Below are positions 4,563 to 53,366 of a DNA stretch of 64,000 nucleotides, one piece after another (position 1 is the stretch's first letter; every line of letters starts with the position of its first letter). The notes under the pieces were generated by a model that was not told the origin of the DNA, did no database searches, and was given only the letters and a program-made list of their open reading frames with translations. Made by a program: the position numbers and the translations under genes. Source of the DNA: Eledone cirrhosa (taxonomy: Eukaryota); assembly GCA_964016885.1 (NCBI GenBank), contig OZ024742.1, positions 268,460,001 through 268,524,000 on the forward strand, in the 5' to 3' direction.

Positions 4563-4577
4563 TATATATATATATAT

Positions 4578-7500
4578 TGGATTAAATGCTCTGAAATAGC
4601 GATATATATGTGAAGATAGACATAGAATATTCGAAAATATTCTGTATGTTTATAATAAACATTTTGAAGACCTAATCGCTATAGAATAGAATACGTCACG
4701 TATTACAATTAGATTCTCGATAAAAGCAAGGGAAGTAACCTACGCGTTTCATTCTTATTAGAAATCTTCAGGATTACATATCCAGTGCTTTTATCGAGAA
4801 TGACACAGCTAGAGACTTATAGAATACTTAGCTGTGTACAGGAACTGGTTTGAAAGAGCGGTTGCCGGTCCGGCAGAAATTAGAAATTGGATTAAATGCT
4901 CTGAAATAGCGATATATATGTGAAGATAGACATAGAATATTCGAAAATATTCTGTATGTTTATAATAAACATTTTGAAGACCTAATCGCTATAGAATAGA
5001 ATACGTCACGTATTACAATTAGATTCTCGATAAAAGCAAGGGAAGTAACCTACGCGTTTCATTCTTATTAGAAATCTTCAGGATTACATATCCAGTGCTT
5101 TTATCGAGAATGACACAGCTAGAGACTTATAGAATACTTAGCTGTGTATAGGAACTGGTTTGAAAGAGCGGTTGCCGGTCCGGCAGAAATTAGAAATTGG
5201 ATTAAATGCTCTGAAATAGCGATATATATGTGAAGATAGACATAGAATATTCGAAAATAGTCTGTATGTTTATAATAAACATTTTGAAGACCTAATCGCT
5301 ATAGAATAGAATACGTCACGTATTACAAGTAGATTCTCGATAAAAGCAAGGGTAGTAACCTACGCGTTTCATTCTTATTAGAAATCTTCAGGATTACATA
5401 TCCAGTGCTTTTATCGAGAATGACACAGCTAGAGACTTATAGAATACTTAGCTGTGTACGGGAACTGGTTTGAAAGAGCGGTTGCCGGTCCGGCAGAAAT
5501 TAGAAATTGGATTAAATGCTCTGAAATAGCGATATATATGTGAAGATAGACATAGAATATTCGAAAATATTCTGTATGTTTATAATAAACATTTTGAAGA
5601 CCTAATCGCTATAGAATAGAATACGTCACGTATTACAATTAGATTCTCGATAAAAGCAAGGGAAGAAACCTACGCGTTTCATTCTTATTAGAAATCTTCA
5701 GGATTACATATCCAGTGCTTTTATCGAGAATGACACAGCTAGAGACTTATAGAATACTTAGCTGTGTACAGGAACTGGTTTGAAAGAGCGGTTGCCGGTC
5801 CGGCAGAAATTAGAAATTGGATTAAATGCTCTGAAATAGCGATATATATATGAAGATAGACATAGAATATTCGAAAATATTCTGTATGTTTATAATAAAC
5901 ATTTTGAAGACCTAATCGCTATAGAATAGAATACGTCACGTATTACAATTAGATTCTCGATAAAAGCAAGTGAAGTAACCTACGGGTTTCATTCTTATTA
6001 GAAATATTCAGGATTACATATCCAGTGCTTTTATCGAGAATGACACAGCTAGAGACTTATAGAATACTTAGCTGTGTACAGGAACTGGTTTAAAAGAGCG
6101 GTTGCCGGTCCGGCAGAAATTAGAAATTGGATTAAATGCTCTGAAATAGCGATATATATGTGAAGATAGACATAGAATATTCGAAAATATTCTGTATGTT
6201 TATAATAAACATTTTGAAGACCTAATCGCTATAGAATAGAATACGTCACGTATTACAATTAGATTCTCGATAAAAGCAAGGGAAGTAACCTACGCGTTTC
6301 ATTCTTATTAGAAATCTTCAGGATTACATATCCAGTGCTTTTATCGAGAATGACACAGCTAGAGACTTATACAATACTTTGCTGTGTACAGGAACTGATT
6401 TGAAAGAGCGGTTGCCGGTCCGGCAGAAATTAGAAATTGGATTAAATGCTCTGAAATAGCGATATATATGTGAAGATAGACATAGAATATTCGAAAATAT
6501 TCTGTATGTTTATAATAAACATTTTGAAGACCTCATCGCTATAGAATAGAATACGTCACGTATTACAATTAGATTCTCGATAAAAGCAAGGGAAGTAACC
6601 TACGCGTTTCATTCTTATTAGAAATCTTCAGGATTACATATCCAGTGCTTTTATCGAGAATGACACAGCTAGAGACTTATAGAATACTTAGCTGTGTATA
6701 GGAACTGGTTTGAAAGAGCGGTTGCCGGTCCGGCAGAAATTAGAAATTGGATTAAATGCTCTGAAATAGCGATATATATGTGAAGATAGACATAGAATAT
6801 TCGAAAATATTCTGTATGTTTATAATAAACATTTTGAAGACCTAATCGCTATAGAATAGAATACGTCACGTATTCCAAGTAGATTCTCGATAAAAGCAAG
6901 GGAAGTAACCTACGCGTTTCATTCTTATTAGAAATCTTCAGAATTACATATCCAGTGCTTTTATCGAGAATGACACAGCTAGAGACTTATAGAATACTTA
7001 GCTGTGTACAGGAACTGGTTTGAAAGAGCGGTTGCCGGTCCGGCAGAAATTAGAAATTGGATTAAATGCTCTGAAATAGCGATATATATGTGAAGATAGA
7101 CATAGAATATTCGAAAATATTCTGTATGTTTATAATAAACATTTTGAAGACCTAATCGCTATAGAATAGAATACGTCACGTATTACAATTAGATTCTCGA
7201 TAAAAGCAAGGGAAGTAACCTACGCGTTTCATTCTTATTAGAAATCTTCAGGATTACATATCCAGTGCTTTTATCGAGAATGACACAGCTAGAGACTTAT
7301 AGAATACTTAGCTGTGTACAGGAACTGGTTTGAAAGAGCGGTTGCCGGTCCGGCAGAAATTAGAAATTAGATTAAATGCTCTGAAATAGCGATATATATG
7401 TGAAGATAGACATAGAATATTCGAAAATATTCTGTATGTTTATAATAAACATTTTGAAGACCTAATCGCTATAGAATAGAATACGTCACGTATTACAATT

Positions 7501-7855
7501 AGATTCTCGATAAAAGCAAGTGAAGTAACCTACGCGTTTCATTCTTATTAGAAATATTCAGGATTACATATCCAGTGCTTTTATCGAGAATGACACAGCT
7601 AGAGACTTATAGAATACTTTGCTGTGTACAGGAACTGATTTGAAAGAGCGGTTGCCGGTCCGGCAGAAATTAGAAATTGGATTAAATGCTCTGAAATAGC
7701 GATATATATGTGAAGATAGACATAGAATATTCGAAAATATTCTGTATGTTTATAATAAACATTTTGAAGACCTAATCGCTATAGAATAGAATACGTCACG
7801 TATTACAATTAGATTCTCGATAAAAGCAAGGGAAGTAACCTACGCGTTTCATTCT
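4578..7855 (-). repeat. 310-bp tandem array, 10 full copies + 1 partial, each unit with a hammerhead ribozyme motif (retrozyme-like)
   Basis: attaaatgct recurs at 4581, 4891, 5201 ... 7681 (exact 310 period). Units differ by only a few substitutions. (TA)n lies on the left, and on the right after a short inverted copy. Confidence 0.95.
4713..4801 (-). ncRNA. Type I hammerhead ribozyme (first array copy; repeats every 310 bp)
   Basis: Minus strand reads GTAATC-CTGAAGA-tTTCT aata AGAAt-GAAAC-GC-GTA/GGTTAC. Stem I is GTAATC/GGTTAC, extended past an internal loop by the 16-bp helix attctcgataaaagca/tgcttttatcgagaat. Stem III ACGCGT is palindromic. Predicted cleavage lies between 4741 and 4740. 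Confidence 0.85.
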
Positions 7856-8237: not shown

Positions 8238-8529
8238 CGTTGCCAATAAGAAACACACGCCAATTGCTTTCACTTCAATTTATTATAAATTAAATTTATA
8301 AATTTAGGAATTTATAAATTTCCAGTTGGTTGGTTGGTTGGTTGGTTCCACAACCAGACGATTGTTCATATATTGTCAAAGTTCTTTCGTCACACATTAT
8401 GTGACCACTTCAGTGATTGGGGATTATTTTCTGGTGCGTGTGTTTCTTATTGGCAACATGACCCTCCCAAAGCATAACAATATCGGTTTCAACACACGTT
8501 TTCAGATAAAGAATATTGCTAAAAAATGC

Positions 8530-8530
<1 letters not shown>
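8238..8530. mobile_element. Penelope-like 3' terminal (pseudo-LTR) fragment with an inverted terminal segment
   Basis: 8238-8425 matches approx. 24658-24830 and 42214-42395. 8432-8525 is the reverse complement of approx. 24590-24680. It ends in (TA)n. Confidence 0.8.
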
Positions 8531-23558: not shown

Positions 23559-24150
23559 GCAAAAAGTAAACGTTGTATGTGACAATTCCATCTACTAGAA
23601 ATATTAGCAAAATCCATTTCAAATCACAGCGAACATTCCTACACACATACACACATACACATGCATATATGTGTATGTATGTCATGAAGCCACTATGACT
23701 GTTGGTGTCTCTAAAAGAAATAGAAAACAAATCTCCCTCAAACAAAATCCTATTGCTATAGAGGGAAAAGTTGGTGATATATATGTATATATATACATAT
23801 ATATATTTATATATATATATATATATATACATTGATTATTTGAGGGATATTACGACTCTGGTTGGATATACCTGTCGCCCGGGATTTCTGTTATGGTCAT
23901 TCTTCCCCAGATGTTTCAGTCCTGGATGACAGGACACGCGCACCAGGACTGAACAAAGTCTGATTCACCCTCTTGGGTCCTATTCCTCTCTTGGACTCAA
24001 CTCACCTCCCCAATTTTTCTAATACCCCGTCCACTATCACACCCCTAGATTCCTATCGCTTCCTCTTTGCTAATAGCTTCGTACTTACATGCACACACAC
24101 TCATTTACACACGCATTTCTTCTTAGCTTCGTACGGATATACAATAACAC

Positions 24151-24189
<39 letters not shown>

Positions 24190-24422
24190 AACCCATGCTT
24201 ACGCACGTGCTCAAGTATAGCTCTTTTTTACAAAACGTTTTTTTTACTTTTCAGGTAGACGGGCGTCATCATCCACTTTTCTAAAAAAAAATCATACACA
24301 AAACGCCAGCACCAAGAGTTTTGCAAGAGATCTCAACATGAATGGACCTATTATTTTTATCTAAAGACATGTTTTCGAATCCCATCCCACCCGTCCCCTT
24401 AATCTATTTTATTTCTCATTCT

Positions 24423-24458
24423 TTCTTCTGATAAAGGACTGCGTCCGAAACGTTAAGA
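24423..24458 (+). ncRNA. Minimal PLE-type hammerhead with one core substitution
   Basis: tctt-CTGATAA-a-GGAC tgc GTCC-GAAAC-GTT-aaga. G8 is replaced by A, so it is probably inactive. Confidence 0.55.
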
Positions 24459-24544
24459 CCCTCTTCCTGCTATATAATGCGTTAACCTAATATATACCTT
24501 CCATATATTGTACCGATTGTTTTGTTATTTCTGTTTCCCTTTTA

Positions 24545-24574
<30 letters not shown>

Positions 24575-24577
<3 letters not shown>

Positions 24578-27500
24578 CGTTTTTGAATTTGTTTAGCAAG
24601 ATTCTTTATCTGAAAACGTGTGTTGAAACCGATATTGTTATACTTTGGGAGGGTCATGTTGCCAATAAGAAACACACGCAGCAGTTGCTTTCACTCCAAT
24701 TTATTATCGATTAAATTATAAATTAAAAAAAATATATAAATTTCCGGTTGGTTGGTTGCTTCCACAACCGGATTGTCAAAGTTCTTTCGTCACAAATTCT
24801 GTGACCTCATCCATGGCCGGGGATTCTTTTCTTTGTTTTGTGCCTCTCCTTCGTTCTGTCCTACGCCATCTTGTTGTTGTGAGTGTTGGGTACTTAGTTT
24901 GCGCATGTGTTACATCCGGGTGTCTGTGTGTGTTTTTATTTGTTTATTTATTTGTTTATTTACATGTCACTAGTTGGTTGTTTATTCTATGTGTGTGTGT
25001 TTTCATTTTGTCCTTAATTGTAAGTTGTGATCTTGCTATTCCATTCATGTTTTTTATTTAATTTTGGTTGAAGTTCATTTATGTTTATTGCCTCTGTGAT
25101 TTGTCTAAATATTGCGTCATTTCTATGTATAGATTTTATTTTTATTTCTATGTTCTCTAATTTGCCCTTATGTTCTATTTTAGCATGTTGGTGGAGTACT
25201 GATGAATCTTTTCTATCTTAAAACTCTAGCCAGTGTTCATTTAATCGTTCTCCTATACTACGAGCTGCCTCACCTATGTACATTATGTTCTTATCTTTAC
25301 ATTGTCCCTCAGTACATCTTATGCTATATATATGTTTCTAGTTTTGCAGTAGATATAGGGACTTAGTTTACAGATTATACATTTCTTATCTATACAGGGA
25401 GGTCTTGAAAAGGGTATGTATTAGTAATAAGTGTTTTTATGAAGGTACCTGGTCTTTCTACTATCTTAATATTTAGTTTAAGTTTATCTAGGGCCCTTCT
25501 AAATTTGTAAGCTAGTTCACCTATAGGGGTTATATTAATGAACATTACACTCTGGTATTTATTGCTATCATACCATGAGTGTATTCTATTAACCTTATTC
25601 CTAGTTGTTCCTATTCTATTCCAAAAATTGCTCCTATACAAGGGGCAGGTCCAATTTGTATCATTATTTACCATTTTTTTCCCATTTGGTTCTGGCTCCG
25701 CTATATACTCTGATTGTATTTCTCTGATTGTAACCAGAGACTGCATACGGTGGATGACGTGTTGTATGTGTCTGTCTAGTTCTTTGGGGTTGCACATGCG
25801 GGACACGTTCCTCATCAACCGTACTAAATCCGCAATCAGTATGTTGATTTTGGTGTGATCCGAAACAGCTGAATTTCGGTGGATCAGGTATTTGGAAGTC
25901 ATGGGTTTGGCATAATGGGAATGGAGGATTTGTTTTTTGTCATTAATGGTTTCTAACCAGAGCTCTGAGTCTAGTACCGGTAATCGATGGTTGGTCTGTT
26001 TACTAGGGTAGTCTATAGTAACTTTAATACTCTGGTGGATGGAGTTAGCTATGTGCTGGATGGTTTCCATGGTGTTTTTCTCTAATTCCTGACTGTTCTC
26101 TAGTGGGGGTGTTTTACTACGATGTTTATAGCATCAATGTAGCGGGAGTACATAAGGAGGGTTAAGAAGTTGTTGTCTTCTAATTGTTCTTTAAGTTTAT
26201 TGTCCCACCATACCATGAATATATTTGATATGTCACCTGCAATGCTAACACCAATGGTTGCTCCCTCTTCTTGGGCATATGTTTTTCCATTAAATTTGAA
26301 CATATGTTCCTTATGGGTTAGTTTTATACTGGCACCCACCGCATGTGCAATCATTTTCGATGTTCATCATGGATTTCGGGGGTCCGTATGACTCTGGTCC
26401 ATGCATTGCATCTTTCCGTGTGGGTTTTGTTGGCCATTGAGGTAATGGTAAGTGGTCTGCCTCTTGCTGGCCTTGTGGAGAAGAGGTTGCTAAGGTCATA
26501 CGTATCTAGATAATTATTATTGTATGTATGTTTAAGTAGAAATCCCAGCTCACTGATATCACTCCCACGGAATTCAACATTGCTCTCAATGATCATTGGC
26601 ACGCATTACTCCACAGCAAAGTCCCCGTCAATCGATGGGAATAGGGACACTACATCCATACTACCTATTATACAGTCTGATAGTTCACTAGACAGGTTAT
26701 TTTCGCTGATTCTGCTGAGGAGGTCCTCCGTGCTGTCACATATGTCCGCGAACATTTCCATGATGGGGCGTACGATCAGGGAGAGGAAGTAGGAAAGTCT
26801 GTAGTTGCTAGCAATGTTATCTCCACAGACTGGTCGTGTTGGTGGTCCTGTGACTGGGTCACTCTTCGTCTTATGGACTTCTCGTCACTGTTCCAGGCCT
26901 GGAAGTTGTTGGCAATCCGTTTATTGGGCTGTATTATGTTTGTCCACATCATCATATGAGCGTTGATGGTTTTCACCCTATCCTCATGCTCTTGTGGTCT
27001 TACTTCTCTTGTGTTAGTGATGTGGGGTTGCATTGCCTGGATGTAGTTTGACAGACTGTCAACCGACATTCTGCCAGACTTGTCTGTTGGAAAGCATGCA
27101 ATCCCTCCATTACGTGAGCGCTGCATGAGCTTACCCAAGCCATTTGCAGATTTTTCTCCCAGCGGCTTGTTACTATACTGTTCTATAATATTTCTAAGTT
27201 TAGATCTAGCTATATAAAATTGTGCTTCTGTTGGTTCATCGAACTGTGATGGCAATTGCGTGCGTTTGTTAAAAGTTAAAGTCGTGGCGTGGACTCATCG
27301 TAAGTCGAAGGATATATCAGAAGGGTTATAAAAAGTGGAATTCCAGGTTGCGTTGTGTGTTCTATTGCTATTGTTAATTGTGTTGTTGTTTCTATTTCTA
27401 TTTCCACCAACAGCCTCTTGGTTGTTTCTCTGTCTCTCATTATTATTCCCGTCCCTTCCTTCTGACTCCTTGTTATTATCTACTCTATTTTGTGCATCTG

Positions 27501-27780
27501 TGTGTTCGTCCTGGTTATTTCTCCTGCCATTGGCATTGGTCTTACCTCTCTTGTTTGTCTCTCATTGTTACTCCTATCTCTTCCCTCTGGCTCATTGTTA
27601 TTATCTAATCTATTTTTCTGTGTGTGTGTGTTCGTCCTGGATATTTTCTCTGTCATTGTCATTAGTCCCCCTACTTCTCTCATAGCCATTACAGTCCCTT
27701 ACTTCTGTGTTACTGTCATTATGTATTTTCTGTGTCTGTGTGTCTGTTAAGATTATGGTGGTGGTGAGAGGCTTAGAATG
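24575..27780 (-). pseudogene. Near-complete, decayed Penelope-like element (RT + GIY-YIG + 3' pseudo-LTR)
   Basis: PTDKSG, EGATIGVSIAG, YSRYIDA and HYAKPM..LIH.NSA motifs. Manual translation of approx. 25040-25330 gives YSIRC..MYIGEAARSIGERLNEH...RQITEAININ...LNKKHEW (GIY-YIG). The 3' end abuts (TA)n. Confidence 0.9.
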
Positions 27781-28135
27781 TGTGTGTGTTTAATAAACGC
27801 ACTCAATTGCCGTCACACACACGCCTCAACAAGTAAAACTAACTTGGAAGACGGACGACGGAGTGTAACACACACAGACACACACACGCGCCACTCGAAC
27901 CAGAAGACAGATCCCATGGCTCTATTGCAGTCACCGTGAGCGTTTTATTTTGATGCTACTCGATGCACAACTTTGCGGGTCGTTGGCGGAACCTCCCAAC
28001 TGGCCGAAGACAGAATTCGTGAAACTGGGCGCGGCGGACTGGTGGGTAGCAGAAGCAGCGGCGGCGGAACTCGTAAAACTTGTCCGTTGGCGGACAATGG
28101 ATCGGCGGCATGCAACGCATGGAGCGGACTTGTAC

Positions 28136-28203
<68 letters not shown>

Positions 28204-28424
28204 GCGTGTGCGCGCGCGCGCGCGTGTGTGTGTGAGTGTGTCGTTGTTTCGCAATGTCGATGAAAGAAAGCCGCGTCAGTGTTCGGACCCCGTAGCTATC
28301 TCTCTCGTTGATTCATTCGTTCGTTCCAATTTCTTCCGCAGTCCACCGCCGCGCTGCCATATTTCGACATTTTTTTTTCTCTCGACTCGTATTTTTTCTC
28401 GTTGGCAACCGCCGCCTCGAGGAG

Positions 28425-29088
28425 CGGATTGAGTCGTTCGTGAGAAGAGACTCAATTGATCGCAGTGTGGTAGCTACTCTACTAAGTACCTCACTCCGAA
28501 CGGAAAGGCGAGCCGTATACAAGCGATCCTTTTCGGCTCAATCTCTTTCGACAAATCGAATGGACGATTCGCGTCGTCACATAATGGCAATTCCACTGAC
28601 GCTGCTGCTAACGACGACGCGCACCCCGAAAAGGGGAGCGTCTTCGCCAAACGAAGTCATGCCCCTTAAGAAGGTTGAGACGCTTTCGAAAAACAACTCA
28701 GTCCGGCTACGTTCCGGCTTAGAGGCGTTCAGCTGTTATCGTTCAGAGGCAGCCTGGCACCACCACCACTCTATCGAGCGAGCGCGCAAACCGTTGTTCT
28801 GATCCCGCAGTTTCTCTCGTACTGGACGGGATAGCCGTCGCCGAGTTGAGGTTGCCGGCGTCGACGCCGGCCGCAACCCCCTTACAGAAGATGGCTGCAG
28901 ACGCCACCGCCGCCGCCTACACGCAATATATCGGTGGGATAAAACTAACCTGTCTCACAACGGTCTAACCTAGCTCACGTTCCCTGTTAGTGGGTGAACG
29001 ATCCAACGCTTTGCGAATTCTGCTTCGCAATGATAGGAAGAGCAGATATCGAAGGATCAAAAAGCGACGTCGCTGCGAAAGCTTGGCC

Positions 29089-29131
<43 letters not shown>

Positions 29132-29430
29132 CCGCGAACGCATATCTCGCCGCTATTCGGAATGGATCGATGGGCCACGCTTTCGCGGTCCGTATTCGTA
29201 CTGAAAATGTAGATCGAGCGAGCTTTCGCCCTTTTGCTCAACGTGTGGTGAACGTCCACGCTGAGCTCGCCTTGGGACACCTGCGTTACCCTTTGACAGA
29301 CGTACCGTCCCAGTAAAACTCTCCGACCGACACTGTTCTCGACTAAGGGTCACATCGGCTACGTCGGCGCACAACGTGTGCGCGCCGACATACACCGCAC
29401 GCTACGCACCAGATAAATGAACTTCCGCTC
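28425..29430 (-). pseudogene. 28S (LSU) rRNA 3' fragment, pseudogene
   Basis: Antisense peptidyl-transferase-centre sequence (cacaagccagttatccctgtggtaac, gaaggatcaaaaagcgacgtcgc), a sarcin-ricin-loop-like AGTACGAGAG near 28812-28823 and a 3'-terminal motif tcaattgatcgcag. Substitutions occur at normally conserved sites and the 5' part of the gene is absent. Confidence 0.9.
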
Positions 29431-30592
29431 GGCGACGTGGATTTTGCTGTGGAGAAATGCGTGGAAATGATCAGTGAGTGGAATGTTGAATTCCATGGGA
29501 TTGATACCAGTGAGCTGGGACTCCTATTTAAACTTATATATAATAATTGTTTCTACTTTTGGCACAAGGCCAGCAATTACCCAGTGCATTACTGGTACTC
29601 TATTTTATCGACCCCGGAAGGATGAAAGGCAAAGTTAACCTCGACGGGATTTGAACTCTATCATACAGGGAGTTAACTCTATGCTTCAAAGCATGGCATC
29701 CGACCCTCTACCGATACTGCCGAAACTTATATATAATAATGATTATCTAGATACGTATGACCTTAGCAACCTCTGCTCCACAAGGCCAGCAAGAAACAGA
29801 CCACCTATAATTACCTCAATGGCCAAGAAAACTCACACAGAAAGACGGAACGTGTGGAACAGAGCCATACGGACCCCCGAAAACCATGATGAACCCCTAA
29901 AAGGATTGCACATGCGGTGGGAGCCAGTATAAAATTAACCCTTAAGGAACATATATTCAAATTTGATGGAAAAACATATGCCCAAGAGCAGGGAGCAGCC
30001 ATTGGTGTTAGCATTGCAGGTGACATAGCTAACCTATTCATGGTATGGTGGGACAATAAACTTAAATAACAATTAGAAGACCCATGACTTCCAAGTACCT
30101 GATCCACGGAAACTCAGCTGTTTCGGATCACACCAAAATCAAAATAATGATTGCGGATTTAGTACGAGTGATGAGGAACGTATCCCGCATGTGCAACCCC
30201 AAAGAACTAGAGAGACACATACAACACTTCATCCACCGTATGCAGTTCTCTGGTTACAATCAGAGAGATAAAATCAGAGTATATAGAGGAGCCAGAACCA
30301 AATGGGAAAAAATGGTAAATAATGATACAAATGGGACCTGTCCCTTGTATAGGAGCAAATTTTGGAATAGAATAGAAAGAACTAGGAATAAGGTTAATAG
30401 AATAAACTCATGGTATGATAGCAATAAATACCAGAGTGTAATGTTCATCAATACAACCCGTAGAGGTGAACTAGCTTACACATTTAGAAGAGCCCTAGAT
30501 AAACTCAAACTAAATATTAAGATAGTAGAAAGGCCAGGTACCTCCATAAAAACACTTATTACTAATACATAGCCTTTTCAAGACCTCCATGT
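29431..30592 (+). pseudogene. Inverted partial copy of the same Penelope-like family
   Basis: Matches the reverse complement of approx. 26630-25390. A ~270-bp deletion near 30081 removes the RT YIDD region. A SINE interrupts it and it ends in TA-rich sequence. Confidence 0.9.
29548..29722 (-). mobile_element. SINE with 18-bp target-site duplication
   Basis: aaacttatatataataat at 29530-29547 and 29723-29740. The body (B-box-like gagttcaaatccc, ttgcctttcatcct..ggggtcgataaa) is shared with 45738-46117 and 51528-51585. Confidence 0.9.
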
Positions 30593-30637
30593 ATATATAC
30601 CTCGTGTATATATATGTATATATATGTATATATATAT

Positions 30638-30922
30638 ATATTGGTAAACGGATAATAATAAAATAATTTTGAGATAGAGTGTCCGTGCTGTTTGCTCTGA
30701 TCAGCACGGACACTCTATCTCAAAATTATTTTTGAAAAGCATTTAGAAATGCGCAACCGGTAAAAACTTAAAAACTTAAAACCACAACTGAATACTAACC
30801 CATACAATTACTAATACTCTTTTATTCATAATTAAACCATTTTTCAACTGTGAACAATTTGTCAGCATTTTCTATTCCGTTTACCAATATATAATAACTT
30901 GTGTGTTACACCTCTATTCTTT

Positions 30923-42129: not shown

Positions 42130-42133
<4 letters not shown>

Positions 42134-42810
42134 CGTTTCTTAATTTGTTTAGCAAGATTCTTTATCTGAAAACGTGTGTTGAGACCGATATTGTTATACT
42201 TTGGGAGGATCATGTTGCCAATAAGAAACACACGCACCAGTGCTTTCACTTCAATTTATTATAATAAATTTATAAATTTAGGAATTTATAAATTTCCGGT
42301 TGGTTGGTTGGTTCCACAACCAGTTGGTTGTTTATATATGTTCAAAGTTCTTTCCATAGACATTCAGTGACCTCTTCAGTGACTGGGGATTCTTTTCTTT
42401 GATTTTGTGCCTCTCCTTTGTTCTGTCCTACGACATCTTGTTTCTGTGTGTGTGTTGTGTACTCAGTCTGTGCATGCGCCACATCCGGGTGTCTGTGTGT
42501 GTTTATATTCGTTTATCTATTTGTTTATTTACATGTTGCTGGTTGGTTGTTTGTTCTATGTGCGTGTGTGTTTTAATTTTGTCCTTAATTGTAAGTTATG
42601 ATGTTGCTGTTCCACTCATGTTTTCTATTTAATTTTGGTTGTAATTATTTTATGTTTATTGCCTCTGTGATTTGTCTAAACATTGCGTCTTTTCTGTGTG
42701 TAGATTCTATTTTTATTTCTATGTTCTCTAATTTACCCTTATGTTCTATTTTAGCATGTTGGTAGAGTACAGATGATTTTTTACTATCTTGAAGGTCTCG
42801 TCAGCGTTCA
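42130..42810 (-). mobile_element. 5'-truncated copy of the 24575-27780 Penelope-like 3' end, between (TA)n tracts
   Basis: Colinear with 24575-25240. Confidence 0.85.
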
Positions 42811-44829: not shown

Positions 44830-45737
44830 ATATATAGTATGCATATATATACGCAAATATATATGCACATACATATTATACGTAAATGGACAATATGCAC
44901 ATAAACGGAACAAAGACTTTGGTACTCTTACTACTGTAATCAGTAAAGTAATCCAGAATACATAAAAAAAGGCGATAATGAAGATGGAAAAGCGATGAAA
45001 TTATTTACGGAAAATGTTCATGAATGTTCACTTGAAAATGTCGATAGGAAGCTTCAGGCATTGAATTTGAAAATAGATGCTGCTGGTATGAATGAATTAC
45101 ATTTACCAATATGAAGAGTTGACCTGTTGTTTTACTGTATTCAAATACAAATTTCTTAATTTTTTGTTGTGTCACTTTTCTAGTAATGAAATAGAAACTG
45201 AAATGCATTTCAACTAAAAGCGAGTGATTGCTGTTTCACATCACTGTAGAATTTCTTTGTAGACACAGTTGTCCACAAACAGATCCGTTTCATTTATTAT
45301 TTTTATGTTTTCTTTTTTTATAATGCAACATATATCTGACCATGTGAGAAGAATTGTGTTGGTAGATATACACCTATCTTTTCCAATGTCTGCCCTTGTG
45401 CCTTGTTGCATGTAAGGGTAAAGGCTGGTTTGACAGGAAATTGCTTGCGAGTAAAGGTGAAAGGGAACTCAAGCTTATGAGATACATGTGGTATCCTTGG
45501 GATCAGCAATCTTGTTCCAGCTTTGGGACCCAATGCCACTTCAGCTTCAATTACATGATTATGTAAACTGTGGATGATCTAGCGTGTACCATTGCAATGC
45601 CCATTTAGAGCATCCATATGTCCCAGAAGCATGATACAACTGCCTTTCTTCAGTTTAAGTATGTCTGTTGGGAACCCTGATGGAGTAAGTTTGTTGATGA
45701 ACTCAATTAATTATTGCAGTTCATTATCTATTGTATC

Positions 45738-45918
45738 GGTGGATTGGCAATATCGGTGCAGGGTCGGACGCCATGCTTTCCAGCATAGTTAAGTCCCTTT
45801 ACGATCTGAGTTCAAATCCCGCCGAGGTTGACTTTGCCTTTCATCCTTACGGGGTCGATAAAATAAAGTACCAGTAATGCACTGGATAATTGCTGGCCTT
45901 GTGCCTAAAGTAGAAGCA
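45738..45918 (+). mobile_element. SINE (copy 1 of tandem pair) within the Helitron helicase
   Basis: Same family as 29548-29722, flanked by attatctattgtatc. Confidence 0.85.
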
Positions 45919-45937
45919 ATTATCTATTGTATCAGAG

Positions 45938-46117
45938 AGGAATTGGCAGTATCGGTAGAGAGACGGACGCCATGCTTTCTAGCATAGTTACGTCCCTTTA
46001 CAGTCTGAGTTCAACTCCCGCCGAGGTTAACTTTGCCTTTCATCCTTACGGGGTCGATAACATAAAGTACCAGTAATGTACTGGGTAATTGCTGGCCTTG
46101 TGCGTAAAGTAGAAACA
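45938..46117 (+). mobile_element. SINE (copy 2 of tandem pair)
   Basis: Flanked by attatctattgtatcagag at 45919 and 46118. Confidence 0.85.
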
Positions 46118-49100
46118 ATTATCTATTGTATCAGAGCTTCTGTAGATTATTTCATGACCAGGGAACTTGTTGACCATGAACTCATTCACCAATCTTGCTG
46201 CATCATTTGTTGGAATGTTAATGGCTCTATTTGGAACCAATAGTGTGTTTGTGTAGTTTTCTGGAAGATTTGTATACACAAAATCACACAGTCCAGACAC
46301 ATTACCATATTACAGACAAAGTTCATTTGGCAGAAGAATTGTGAATGCACCTACAGTTGGAACAGTTGGAACGTTACCATATCCCACATCAAGAAGGTAG
46401 TTTGCAAACTTTCATCAGAATCCTCTGCATTAATTAATCGTTGATTAGTTGCCATCTCCATGGTTCCCACATAGTCATCCCAGAGATAGGATATCTTGAT
46501 GGTTGTCTCCATTAATTGTGGTCTAGCACCATGACGTACCATTGGAGGAATTTTCTTCCAGTTACCAGATATTAATACTGTTAGACCACCAAATGGCTTT
46601 TTGCAATCTCGAACATCTTTGAAGCTCCTGTCAAGGCATTCAAATGATATGCTTATGTCCCATACCTATCTCATCAATGATTATCAGGTAAGCTTGATGC
46701 ATAGTTTTACCTGTGGCATCCCTCTTTGTGAAGAAGCAAGTTTATTCTGCAGTTAATTGAGAGGAGTCTTGCACTTGGAATCAATAGTTCTACCCTTATG
46801 AAGCAAAGTGGCTGCTATTCCATATATGGCAGTGGCAAGTGCAATTTTGTTTTTAGATCGGAGGTAATCCAATAGGATGTTTATGAAATAGGTCTTTCTT
46901 GTGACTTGCATTCAAGCACAAAATCTCCCTTCATTTTTATTTACAGAGGTGATTACGTTGTGAAAAATAACCAGTTGCTCTGGATTCAATGTTCATTTAT
47001 GTTTGCTTGCAGTTTGTGTGTATTGAAATCAGTTTCTGCCATAAGAATCCTGTTGATCACTGGTATGGCAACAATAGTTGGGTCTGGCCGAGGAAATCCA
47101 TAGTTGGCATGAATGTCCAAGCCATCATGTAGAAGTGTTTTTTGGTTCTTCTGTAGAACAATCAGCACGGTTTTCATGAACATGACTTGCTCATGATTTC
47201 ATGCATGATATCCTCTGCAAGACAATTCTTCCATTTCTCGCAGAGCGTTGTTTGGCATGCAGTACAATAAAATGGGCTAGAAGTCTCTTGCAGCAGAGGA
47301 CCAATCGTAATGGATGAGGCCTCTTCCATAGCTTTGTCTTTTTCCTCATCTTCATCCAACAGACCAAGCTTCCTGCATGCTTCTTGGAATGCTGGAAATT
47401 CAACTCCTTCAATTATTCTCAAATCTTTGTATGAAGCTGACACAGCCTTGAGATGTAGGATCATCCTGAGATAATATAATTCAGATTGATGTCTAATGAG
47501 AGATACTGTTGGAATGCATCCAATAGATTCCCTCATAAATTGTTGATCACCATCCAGATGTCCTTTCTTTCTTCTTTGCCACTTTTTTTTTCAAAGTGGA
47601 ACATTTAGGAATATCAATATACAATATTGTTTTGTGCCAGTGGGTCTCTAATATTCAGTTGGAAATATTCCGTCAACTTAGTCATTGACTGTATCCTAGA
47701 AACAACACTTTCTTCCAGCCCTCGCTCATACACAACCGTTTGTTCTCCAGGTAAATGGAAAGGAAACTTTTACACTGGCGGTTTTCGATGATGTAATGGA
47801 AATTTATAGATTCTCCAGAATGCTTCACTGGCTGATATTACCGTGCATTGATATAGGTCTCAATCTCATTTGGGGCATGGACACAATTTCCTTGATCATC
47901 CTTAATAGTGAAAGTGATCTTGTCTGATCCTTTTGTGATGTACTTATATAAATACTTAACAGCCCTGACATTGTGGACAGCCTCACAATTGATGTGGCAC
48001 TGAAATCTCGATGAGAGGAAAGGGTTGTCCAACGATTATCAACAGGAAATTCTTGGCATTTAAGTTGAAATTGTATAGGTATGACCACCATGCTGTATAT
48101 CCTTCTTCTATACTCCCGAAAGGAATTTTCAGCAACAAATGTGGTTTGTCTGAATGCCTTGGGATAACATTTTGAGCAATGGCGTTGTTATCCTAGACCT
48201 TCCATACATGAGCACATCATATTAGCTTGTCCATATGAGTCATGAGTGTTGCAGGATGTGATGATCTTATCCAGAATTGGATTGGTTTCTTTATCAGGAA
48301 TCTCGCAGTACACTACCTGATCAATAGCATCAGCAGTTTTGGGCTTGCTCTCTTCAGCCATTAACAGCACAATATGAGCATGAGTGAGGGCTCGTTTCTG
48401 CGACTCTATTATAGCATAATAAGCCACAACGTTTCCTAGTAGATTTTTCTGTTTCAGTATGTCATGCATGAGGCTGTCATACTTGATCTTGAAGACTCTT
48501 GCACAAATAACAGGACGGTCTCCAGGTTCTTCACGAAGGTGCAAAGTATTTTTTATTTTATCCCAGTTAAGATTAGGGGTAGGGTACATTCCTCCAAGGA
48601 AACAGTATCGCATAATGTAGAGGATCATAATCACGGTGCATCTCATGGATCCTCTGCAGAACACTATCTCTTTTATGAATGATGACATCCAAAAGACCTA
48701 ATGCTGTATCAGGTTCAATAACAGCAATCTCAGATGCCATGGGAAGATCATATGTGCGACTAAGAAAATCAGTGGCTTTTAATTTGTCAGCATGTAGGAC
48801 AATATTAACATTGTGAGAGACTGGCATTTCAATGACTGCGTTGAAACTTCTTATATAGGTGTTACAATAGTGCAAGTATTGTTGCACTACCTGCAGGACA
48901 GCAGCATCAAAATTAGCATGATGCAAGCGATTCTGAAGCTCGTGATCGGTATCATAGAAGTAAAGCTGCGCAAACCTGGGTGACGTATCACTTGGAAGTA
49001 GTGATCCAATAATATGACAAATCTTACCTTGGATCTTAAATGGGGGGCTAAATACTGGTGCTTTAATCTCTTTGCAGCCAATTGAAGCTGAGGCAAGCAC

Positions 49101-49846
49101 ATTGATATATGCACGTATCTTATGGACAAAATAATTTCATGCTTGAGAGATATCGAAATATTTGAATCTTTTAAAAGAGGTGAATCTTAAAATATGCAAT
49201 AATATTTTTAATATATGTTTAATCATGTGTTACGAAATTTAGTAGATAAATTATGTAATATTCATTCATTATTTATTCAAAATAATCCAACTTATTTTAC
49301 ATACGGGATAAACATTTATATTCTGGATGTAGGCCCGCACTCTTATTATAGTTAAGATATTCAATTTAGGACATCCGAATGGTTTCCAACTACGAATTTT
49401 GATAATGATATAAAGAAAAGTAGTAGCCGAAAATGACTGAAGTAATAATAGTGATGTGACCATTACAATTACTTTCGTAGTATTTAGGCTCATTTATAGT
49501 ACGCACTGCTCCATGCAAAAGCATGCGCAAACGAGGATATATTACATAAAACTGTGTACACATAGACTCGTGTGCATGTGTACATGTACACATGTAATCG
49601 CGAATGAGTTTGTATGTGCTTGTTTAAATGTATGCATACATATAAATATACTCGCACCTATATGCTTCTAAAATACACACACACGTTTATATCGGTATGC
49701 ACATATGCATAGATATTCAGGATGTGCATGCACAGGCACGTATTTGTGCACACACTCTGTATATTAACACATACATATACATGCATATATATATATATAT
49801 ACATAAACACACATAAACACCCACACACGCACACACACACACACAA

Positions 49847-51411: not shown

Positions 51412-53366
51412 TTAGTATCATAAATAAGAGACAGATTTGTGCATTTTATTACACCATGCTTTTATACGTATATATATGTACATACATACATAAACAAGTT
51501 ATTCACAGTTGTATTAAAAAGAAGTATAATTGTTTCTACTTTTGGCACAAGGCCAGCAATTATACCAGTACATTACCGGTACTTTATTACATATAATATA
51601 TATAATACGACATTCCTCTCTCTTTCTTACTCTATCTTTTTAGATAGATACATAGCTATAATGTCGTGCGCTTATAATATATGTCTGTATGTCTGCCTAT
51701 CCGCATTGACATCGCTTCTAACCAACTTTTAATTAATGATATATATATATAATTATATATTCGTGTACATATTTTCAACAGTAACACTATAATATACTAT
51801 ATATTTTCAACCGTAATACTATACTATATGTTTTCAAAGGTTATACTATACTATATGTTTTTAACAGTTATTGCAATAATCATCAACCGCTTATAAATTT
51901 GACAACGGTTATCTCTTTATGTCGAGGGGAAGTCGATTCCATGAGGCCCATTGTTTATGTTAATAACTAATAACAAGATATCACATGATTAGTTAATTTA
52001 TCTAACACTACCAATTAATCATTTTATCATTAATAAATAATTATACTACTAGGATTGATTCCTTCACTAATCCGACTAATTTATTAAATGAACATGTCTT
52101 ATTTAACGAACAGGACTAATTTATAATGCTAACAAGATTTATTAATTAGACTAACGCTACTAATTAAATAAATCTACACAATTAATCAATTACACGAACA
52201 TGATAATTAATAAAACTAACACCATTAATCAATTAAATCAATGCAATTAATCAATTAAATTAACGCGATTGATCGATTGACATATGAAATAAAATAAATT
52301 GACAATTAGTTAAACTAACATGATAAATAATTGGTTTAAATTGAATGTAATTAGACTAATTAATCGAACTCACTTAAACGATTATTTAGATCGGCCTAAT
52401 TAAGTAATGGCAATACGCACAAAAAAACCCAGGAGTGTGTCAAACCAACACACGCACACATCGACAGAACTATACACACAGATAGACCGAACTAAACACA
52501 TATCACGGACGCGCTGACAACTATAAATGTTATGTCCTCAACGACGTATATATACACAATGACAATAAAACTATCTAATTCGTTAGTGTTCCGCCTATCA
52601 AACCTTGTTTTCACCCGTCCTAGCATTCTCTCTCAGTGAGATACGCACATATACACTCACTCTCTTTATATTCGACTGCCAGCAAACAAAATTATGTTTC
52701 TCTGAACTACTGTTGACCACTTCACAAATTCTTTCTTCTTCACAACTCCCAGCCGAGTTTCTGAAGTTTACAACTTGACCTTCGGATTGCAGAATCTTGA
52801 TATCTCTCTCTCATACCATTTGGTATATAGACACACAGACACACACATGCACACACACAGAAACATACACACACACATATACACACTCATACACACACAC
52901 TCACATGAAGACAGACTTACACGCTGATAAACACACCGTCACATATAAAGAATATTAACTCTGTAGATTCAATCAATGATAACACCCACAAAAACATTCA
53001 TATACACATACACATATTCCTACATAAAGGCACAAACAATATGCAGACACACAAGTACACGTACACACACGCAGATACTGAACAAGTAAAACAACGAAAA
53101 TCACACTAACGGAATGCACACGCATTTCAGTACCAATGAAGAAACAGACTTTCCACTTCACCCCACAGTAAAACGCCTGCCCATCTAAACCATCATGATA
53201 AAACATTATTCTTCTTACATCTTCACAACTTCCCAACTCTTCAATTTCCGTAATTTGCTCGCTCCCGGTGAAGGCCTAACATCCGATAATTTCAAACATA
53301 GTTTTTCCCTTTACAACAAGCATTGAATTAATAAAGCTTTGTTATTGTATATTCATATTTATTCTG

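Follow-up and report, generated by a model that had tools for sequence, protein, structure and literature searches.

The locus described here lies in a 64-kb stretch of animal DNA from Eledone cirrhosa (assembly GCA_964016885.1, contig OZ024742.1; hereafter the window, in the coordinates of which all positions are given) that abounds in (TA)n runs and transposon relics. It consists of a decayed head-to-head pair of Penelope-like elements (PLEs) set in (TA)n DNA, with 1.6 kb of ribosomal DNA (rDNA) inside the inverted member of the pair. On the minus strand, a 3' piece of the 28S rRNA gene (1,010 nt) is followed by about 606 nt of CpG-rich spacer and then by a co-oriented PLE that ends in (TA)n (the left arm), and an inverted copy of the PLE (the right, or inverted, arm) completes the locus. 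Read along the plus strand, the inverted arm starts at the truncated end of the left arm, runs for 29 nt, gives way to 1,616 nt of antisense rDNA and then resumes 615 nt further along the element (Table 1); the rDNA is assigned to the inside of this arm because the 29-nt inverted PLE piece stands on the far side of the spacer. The anatomy proposed in a prior reading of the same DNA made from the sequence only (28S 3' end, spacer, co-oriented PLE and inverted copy) is confirmed by Rfam, tblastn and self-comparison, as are the direct contact of the truncated 28S 5' end with an inverted copy of the same PLE family (junction 29433/29434) and the TA-rich DNA in which that copy ends, a degenerate TA run at 30600-30641.

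Table 1. Features of the PLE-rDNA locus (window coordinates).
Feature	Position	Strand	Evidence or remark
(TA)n target, 3' end of left arm	24547..24575		3' end shared with the 42-kb copy, where (TA)n likewise follows
Left PLE arm, 5'-truncated inside the open reading frame (ORF), decayed	24576..27788	-	Inner boundary 27749-27795 by composition, set at 27788 by the adjoining 29-nt piece
Degenerate minimal hammerhead-like motif in the 3' terminal region	24775..24818	-	Core, stem II and GAAA by eye, in three copies
C-X4-C-X2-C linker and C-terminal GIY-YIG endonuclease with CCHH residues	25041..25400	-	tblastn; motif by eye
PLE reverse transcriptase (RT) region, ~70 extra residues between motifs A and B'	25401..27345	-	Homologs and fold of P0001
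Asn/Arg-rich low-complexity ORF linker with 125-bp repeat; holds the truncation point	27346..27788	-	Similar N-rich stretch before the RT in Octopus vulgaris P0001
29-nt PLE piece in inverted-arm orientation (= left 27273->27245)	27789..27817	+	26/29 identity, E 3.3e-6
Sequence downstream of 28S, putative start of 3' external transcribed spacer (ETS) or intergenic spacer (IGS), (CA)n at 28139-28241	27818..28423	-	Contiguity with the 28S end, CpG content
28S rRNA 3' 1,010 nt, pseudogenised	28424..29433	-	Rfam; 10/173 invariant columns changed
Inverted PLE arm, main part (left-equivalent 26629->25387)	29434..30599	+	270-nt deletion at 30079/30080; without endonuclease and terminal repeat
Later insert in inverted arm, resembling a short interspersed nuclear element (SINE)	29547..29723	-	Perfect 18-bp target-site duplication, 29529-29546 and 29724-29741
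Degenerate TA-rich run, outer end of inverted arm	30600..30641		Arm stops at an internal TATAGATA-like site of the element

The ribosomal piece matches the Rfam LSU_rRNA_eukarya model on the minus strand up to 28424, where the match reaches the final model position (3401/3401), and its 5' end at 29433 directly adjoins the inverted PLE. An extension of this Rfam match to 29666 was rejected as an artefact of the SINE-like insert. Decay of the piece was assessed at invariant columns, that is, positions unchanged across 2-7 reference 28S sequences, in three core segments (29131-28934) comprising 173 columns, with interrupted references and all variable regions excluded. Ten of these columns are changed (5.8%, interval 2.8-10.4%), one of them by a deletion, against 0-2 changes in 46-48 columns and 0-6 changes in 108-114 columns among the references themselves; given this excess, the piece is evidently not functional rDNA. 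The references (L001-L007), used only for defining the invariant columns, are eukaryotic 28S contigs in seven bacterial genome records; three of them are interrupted in an intron-like manner, and they are probably contamination. An imperfect microhomology at the junction of the 28S piece with the right arm (7/12 against L004) was too weak to be used. Immediately past the conserved core, at 28850-28930, the piece exceeds the Rfam model by about 77 nt of GC-rich sequence, which probably represents an expansion segment specific to the lineage.

The spacer directly continues the 28S 3' end and has an rDNA-like composition: GC content is 0.535 and the observed/expected CpG ratio 1.35 across 27790-28425, as compared to 0.547 and 1.39 in the 28S piece and 0.40 and 0.53 in the PLE ORF. 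By contiguity and composition, the roughly 600 nt below the 28S gene fit a putative native 3' ETS or spacer. The same interval had been described as GC/(GT)n-rich spacer; it is indeed CpG-rich and contiguous with 28S, but positions 27789-27817 turned out to be a PLE piece, and the microsatellite at 28139-28241, which is (TG)n on the plus strand, reads (CA)n on the minus strand. Apart from this microsatellite, no second copy of the spacer was detected in the window, and comparison with seven eukaryotic 28S loci from a scan of bacterial and archaeal contigs, no cephalopod among them, gave no match. Repeat and terminator scans of the spacer returned microsatellite pairs and chance-level matches only and are neutral with respect to a 3' ETS, and the fold of the 28S end with the first 185 nt of spacer shows no unusual structure (z -0.12). 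A search for PLE coding sequence with 23 proteins of 880+ residues gave no match that extends into 27350-29424, and eight proteins compared with the spacer at E-values up to 10 yielded only noise, apart from the 29-nt stub.

In the left arm, tblastn traces the RT, the Cys linker and the GIY-YIG endonuclease along 27345 to 25041; the segment 25331-25041 aligns with the C-terminal domain of homologs with E-values down to 4e-28, and the RT is recognised by tblastn to RT-domain homologs, with a weak Pfam RVT_1 match below the cut-off. Atlas clusters carry RVT_1, HTH_animal and GIY-YIG at 0.95-0.96. The nearest named proteins are predictions from Octopus vulgaris (64% and 55-56% identity). Homology begins at 27345, which corresponds to residue 162-261 of the four best full-length relatives, and the left ORF is without the N-terminal 160-260 residues of the nearest full-length relatives; it further contains seven frameshifts and three stops (counted by eye), and the YVDD-type motif reads YIDA. 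The features of endonuclease-bearing (EN+) PLEs are nevertheless recognisable, namely, the RT, a C-terminal GIY-YIG domain with CCHH residues and an inverted partner. Of the co-oriented ORF with a pseudo-long terminal repeat (pLTR) ending in (TA)n that the sequence-only reading had described, the PLE and its (TA)n end stand, but the ORF is not intact and the repeat is a single 3'-terminal one; self-comparison of the window revealed no upstream pLTR copy of the left arm.

The family is frequent, with four loci or arms in the 64 kb. Two further copies, at 42.1-42.8 kb and 8.2-8.5 kb, share the 3' end of the left arm, which continues into (TA)n, and all three 3' ends of the family in the window lie in (TA)n. 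The copy at 42132-42810, which is 5'-truncated and has (TA)n on both sides, served as the independent-copy control. The copy at 8239-8530, set in TA-rich DNA, shows a 5' inversion: its inverted terminal piece adjoins a direct one, the two overlapping by 27 nt, an arrangement resembling the outcome of twin priming. A hammerhead-like core and stem II are recognisable across the three copies and degenerate in each of them; stem II folds in two of the three, no fold z-score is significant, the strict core pattern occurs only in the 42-kb copy, and there is no Rfam hammerhead match.

The 29-nt piece (27789-27817) corresponds to left-arm positions 27273->27245 in right-arm orientation. Its alignment scores 40.1 bits as compared to 31.9 bits for the best of 1000 shuffles, none of which reached the score of the stub. 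The stub agrees in orientation with the main part of the right arm and is colinear with it along the element; it is either what remains of the 5' end of the inverted arm or the product of a fold-back. Where the rDNA sits, 615 nt of PLE are missing from the inverted arm, which resumes at 29434 and up to 30599 corresponds to left 26629->25387. This arm is also without the endonuclease and the terminal repeat (811 nt), and a 270-nt internal deletion takes out the YxDD region, so that all the large lesions (615, 270 and 811 nt) are on the inverted arm. Short microhomologies are present at the 270-nt deletion (2 nt) and at the junction between the stub and the spacer (CACA). Between the SINE-like insert at 29547-29723 and two related units at 45723-46136, divergence is about 10-12%. 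Outwards, the inverted arm stops at one of seven TA-like clusters in 2,768 nt of the element, and both outer ends of the whole unit lie in TA runs, which hide any target duplication.

The divergence of the two arms and of the 28S piece is compatible with a similar age of the three parts. The arms differ at 82 of 970 aligned sites (8.5%). Over 945 coding sites, the proportions of synonymous (pS) and nonsynonymous (pN) differences are 0.115 and 0.075, respectively, with a pN/pS of 0.66 (p=0.13 against neutrality), and the differences are distributed over the codon positions as 21/27/31. Two -1 frameshifts, at sites that are continuous in homologs, are common to both arms, and these are the only small frame-changing indels of the right arm. 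By a calculation made post hoc, the probability of sharing them amounts to 0.05 when slippage is confined to the 16 runs of 4+ bases, and to about 0.003 when some 60 sites are allowed (57 runs of 3+ bases were counted); a systematic homopolymer error is a possible cause, but both arms retain four runs of 5-6 bases. The decay of the 28S piece (10/173), measured against non-host 28S sequences, agrees within wide intervals with that of each arm (4.2%, p=0.34), and on this comparison there is no sign that the rDNA is younger than the arms. Taken at moderate confidence, these data suggest that the arms derive from one defective template lineage and that the parts are of similar age.

We consider the locus to be a real, old, single composite insertion, a one-off relic rather than a new system, and it is without function, given that both ORFs are defunct and that no promoter accompanies the rRNA piece. 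As to its origin, we tentatively prefer, at slightly less than an even chance, one integration event in which a template jump of the RT onto pre-rRNA placed 1.6 kb of 28S and spacer in the inverted arm. What the locus itself shows, namely, how its parts are ordered, the stub of 29 nt, the absence of 615 nt of PLE, two frameshifts common to both arms and comparable decay, leads us to infer the following course. A frameshifted PLE RNA would have been mobilised in trans into a (TA)n site, where cDNA primed by both target strands, at the 3' end of the element and at an internal TA-like site, would have produced the usual inverted partner. Plus-strand synthesis would then have passed from the truncated left arm to the partner, of which it copied 29 nt before a jump at the CACA microhomology took it onto the spacer of a sense pre-rRNA; having copied 1.6 kb towards the 28S 5' end, it would have rejoined the partner 615 nt further on; subsequently, the locus would have decayed and gained the SINE-like insert.

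This reading is argued for by the colinearity of the stub with the right arm, the shared frameshifts, the near-neutral differences between the arms, the similar decay of the 28S piece and its orientation, sense to the left arm, as needed for an RT working on rRNA. It further draws on the observations that the family makes 5' inversions (8239-8530), that the large lesions are all on the inverted arm and that this arm ends at a TA-like cluster. Inverted, 5'-truncated partners are described as typical of PLEs (PMC8557442), PLEs capture host DNA and have been proposed to make template jumps (PMC3846280), and 83% of 18 human 28S/LINE-1 chimeras are reported to be in sense orientation (PMC13174262). 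A single retrotransposition of a chimeric 28S-3' ETS-PLE RNA, as put forward in the sequence-only reading, holds insofar as there is one complex locus of similar-aged parts, but a simple chimeric RNA is not the best explanation because the truncation is internal to the ORF, the 29-nt stub is inverted and there is no (TA)n at the spacer junction. The second option given there, an RT template switch onto pre-rRNA, fits.

A number of observations weigh against the template jump. The evidence separates neither an RNA from a DNA template nor integration from later repair, and pre-rRNA that still bears the 3' ETS is short-lived and nucleolar. Any target duplication is unreadable in the (TA)n. The colinearity of the stub has a chance of about one in three by position alone, and all three differences in the stub are synonymous, which hints at a different template. 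The left arm differs from the independent 42-kb copy at 74 of 659 sites (11.2%), not clearly more than the arms differ from each other (p=0.07), and the divergence between the arms is uneven, with 34/252 differences (13.5%) in the part close to the rDNA as opposed to 45/693 (6.5%) in the more distant part (p=0.001). One count of derived amino-acid changes assigns an excess to the left arm (31 vs 15, p=0.026), whereas a second does not (12 vs 8, p=0.50). Finally, the 10/173 changes in the 28S core include lineage-specific ones, so that the piece may in fact be less decayed, and younger, than this figure implies.

The nearest rival, which we regard as rather unlikely, is that the head-to-head pair came first and that later break repair, without any PLE enzyme, deleted 615 nt and captured rDNA in the form of DNA, extrachromosomal circles or cDNA. 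Such repair would leave the same anatomy, the microhomologies of 2 nt and CACA would fit it, and a DNA template would account for the spacer without recourse to a short-lived RNA; moreover, short inverted (5-34 bp) and distant templated insertions are reported at yeast breaks (PMC11724301), and dispersed rDNA pieces, spacer included, are described as common in the human genome (PMC5381670). However, by its decay the 28S piece seems no younger than the arms, the sense orientation would be merely a 50% expectation, and the yeast fold-backs copy break-adjacent sequence, whereas the template of the stub is 515 nt away. An rDNA orphon flanked by two independent insertions of the same family is improbable in our assessment: the divergence between the arms (8.5%, 13.5% in the inner part) does overlap that of independent copies (11.2%), the point estimate of pN/pS is below 1 and the family is frequent in the window, but the two shared frameshifts would have to be accounted for, neither inner junction contains (TA)n while the independent 42-kb copy has it on both sides, and both ends of the rDNA adjoin PLE sequence of one orientation and order.

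Comparably doubtful is a source within the rDNA, where a truncated PLE with a 29-nt 5' inversion would reside in the spacer 600 nt past 28S and its RNA polymerase I (Pol I) read-through RNA would be retrotransposed in trans, the inverted partner arising in that one event. The co-orientation and contiguity of 28S, spacer and left arm speak for it, and if the source had no promoter and was itself frameshifted, the frameshifts common to both arms would be explained, and perhaps also the additional decay that one count gives for the left arm; PLE-X elements, indeed, are reported to reside in the 28S gene of Selaginella (PMC8557442). Their site, at 28S nt ~1121, is nevertheless far from the 28S piece found here, and they belong to another clade. 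In this family, which targets (TA)n, the spacer junction has no (TA)n, the colinearity of the stub with the right arm would be a coincidence, the co-oriented arm is truncated inside the ORF and has no promoter repeat, and the window contains no second copy of the junction, a weak argument in 64 kb. The same ORF-internal truncation, inverted stub at the junction and missing (TA)n count against the proposal in the sequence-only reading that a source PLE just downstream of 28S was driven by Pol I. In its full form, a non-autonomous PLE in the rDNA spacer past 28S, transcribed by Pol I read-through and seeding dispersed 28S-ETS-PLE insertions, would be run by a so far unnamed PLE lineage with a C-terminal endonuclease and a telomerase-like RT-fingers insertion; we hold this scenario to be a long shot which, if true, would amount to a PLE route exporting rDNA around the cephalopod genome. 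Least probable of all, and by our estimate very much so, is that the junctions are an assembly or library chimera of abundant rDNA and repeats. Inverted repeats and rDNA are noted to be error-prone in assemblies (PMC8557442), but the 28S piece is decayed at 10 invariant columns and the arms are 8.5% apart, one of them with its own insert and target duplication, that is, an artefact is unlikely because every part is separately decayed.

Among known systems, the locus as a whole parallels the 28S/LINE-1 chimeras or templated insertions, and its PLE part behaves like the PLEs described so far. The 28S/LINE-1 chimeras have a sense rRNA fragment on the 5' side of a truncated retroelement, as found here with a 29-nt inverted PLE piece between, and template switching, RNA ligation or twin priming has been proposed for their origin; those chimeras (n=18) involve L1 and 28S pieces of 50-482 nt, and ETS is not mentioned in the main text of the report (PMC13174262), whereas the locus here comprises a PLE, 1,010 nt of 28S and about 606 nt past the rRNA end, nested in an inverted partner. 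With canonical PLEs and the Penelope elements of Adineta vaga, the locus has in common the head-to-head arrangement, the (TA)n target and, in degenerate form, the hammerhead-like 3' region (PMC8557442, PMC3846280), along with a putative trans mobilisation, N-rich ORF inserts and captured host sequence as described there. Unlike there, the capture consists of rDNA; instead of direct pLTRs, it has the two parts of the inverted arm on its sides, and this arm is without a pLTR end. Integration of PLEs has not been reconstituted, and the origin of their tandem and inverted structures is considered open (PMC8557442).

The locus is not a member of the rDNA-resident class of retroelements. R2, the other 28S-specific non-LTR elements and PLE-X of Selaginella are likewise adjacent to and co-oriented with 28S (PMC8557442, PMC10946416), but they occupy a fixed site inside intact rDNA units (28S nt ~1121 in the case of PLE-X, according to the supplement of PMC8557442); here, in contrast, rDNA is the insert, PLE sequence is on both sides, the locus lies outside an array and (TA)n flanks it externally. 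Dispersed rDNA pseudogene fragments (PMC5381670) and insertions at breaks (PMC11724301) resemble it in containing a decayed rDNA piece, spacer included, off the array. The piece described here differs from such fragments and from SINE28 (PMC4994717) in being bounded by colinear parts of one retroelement arm, with no sign of becoming a repeated element. The statement in the sequence-only reading that no such arrangement was known for PLEs is to be qualified by PLE-X in the Selaginella 28S gene. Neither a PLE-rRNA chimera nor a PLE in an animal rDNA spacer was found in the open-licence literature searched. 'Penelope' does not occur in a review on rDNA and transposons (PMC10946416), nor 'ribosomal' in a preprint on animal retrozymes (10.64898/2026.07.22.740005); the repeat annotation of O. 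vulgaris lists 336 recent Penelope-like insertions, with rDNA unmentioned (PMC13282606).

The element itself belongs to a lineage that combines a C-terminal GIY-YIG endonuclease with an insertion of about 70 residues between RT motifs A and B', where telomerase has its insertion-in-fingers domain (IFD). Among 167 proteins, 55 relatives have both motifs, and in 53 of these the spacing between A and B' is 120-144 residues, as compared to about 60 (by eye) in DreriNep1 of the Neptune clade. The library contains 270 proteins with E<=1e-30 to the O. vulgaris protein P0001. The structural model of P0001 has a mean predicted local distance difference test (pLDDT) score of 59, with an insert block of pLDDT 81-94 over residues 341-450, so that the insert is confidently predicted to be folded; the best structural matches of the model are the group II intron RT and telomerases (TERT). 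The C-X4-C-X2-C linker, an instance of the CX2-5CxxC pattern with short, Nematis-like spacing, and the (TA)n at three 3' ends are features of Neptune/Nematis, but these clades are characterised by the lack of an insertion-in-fingers domain between motifs A and B', where the element has its extra residues. Judging from its sequence features, the lineage fits no clade as described in PMC8557442 and may represent an unnamed one. According to the same source, the insert is 20 residues long in Naiad and 20-40 in Chlamys, and canonical C-terminal-endonuclease PLEs are without it. A motif look-up in the supplement of that paper found no sequence of the lineage, with the limit that gapped alignments can hide motifs, and a PDB sequence search found nothing.

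Several other elements were identified in the window. A tandem array at 4576-7855 (or to 7863) comprises 10.6 units of 310 bp with 98% identity and is followed by one inverted copy; eight units have a hammerhead-like core on the minus strand, and the array looks like a non-LTR retrozyme or a non-autonomous PLE array (compare 10.64898/2026.07.22.740005). A different element at 23830-24546 on the plus strand, with a hammerhead-like hairpin at about 24428-24460, ends tail to tail with the left arm in the same (TA)n run. To the right of the locus, a TA run contains an element at 30638-30892 that resembles a MITE (a miniature transposable element with inverted repeats), with terminal inverted repeats recognised by eye; a hairpin with 31-bp arms within it (30660-30732) gives rise to false microRNA matches. 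The Rfam microRNA matches were rejected as TA-rich hairpins below the gathering score. The SINE-like family comprises two head-to-tail 199-bp units about 10% apart at 45723-46136, the insert in the inverted arm and a fragment at 51526-51588. A relic of a long interspersed nuclear element (LINE), with pieces of the apurinic/apyrimidinic (AP) endonuclease and the RT, and a Helitron relic (Helitron_like_N, E 1e-18) are located at 101-1897 and 48188-49136.

A single decayed copy changes little. To specialists, the RT-fingers insertion in a lineage with a C-terminal endonuclease may matter more than the rDNA capture because such an insertion has been described as a mark of N-terminal-endonuclease PLEs and telomerases (PMC8557442). 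An oriented foreign template trapped in an inverted arm, however, would record the direction of synthesis, and the one seen here suggests that the PLE RT can leave its template and rejoin it. Should such captures recur, they would provide a countable, genome-wide test of twin priming versus antisense self-priming and would constitute one route by which rDNA is scattered.

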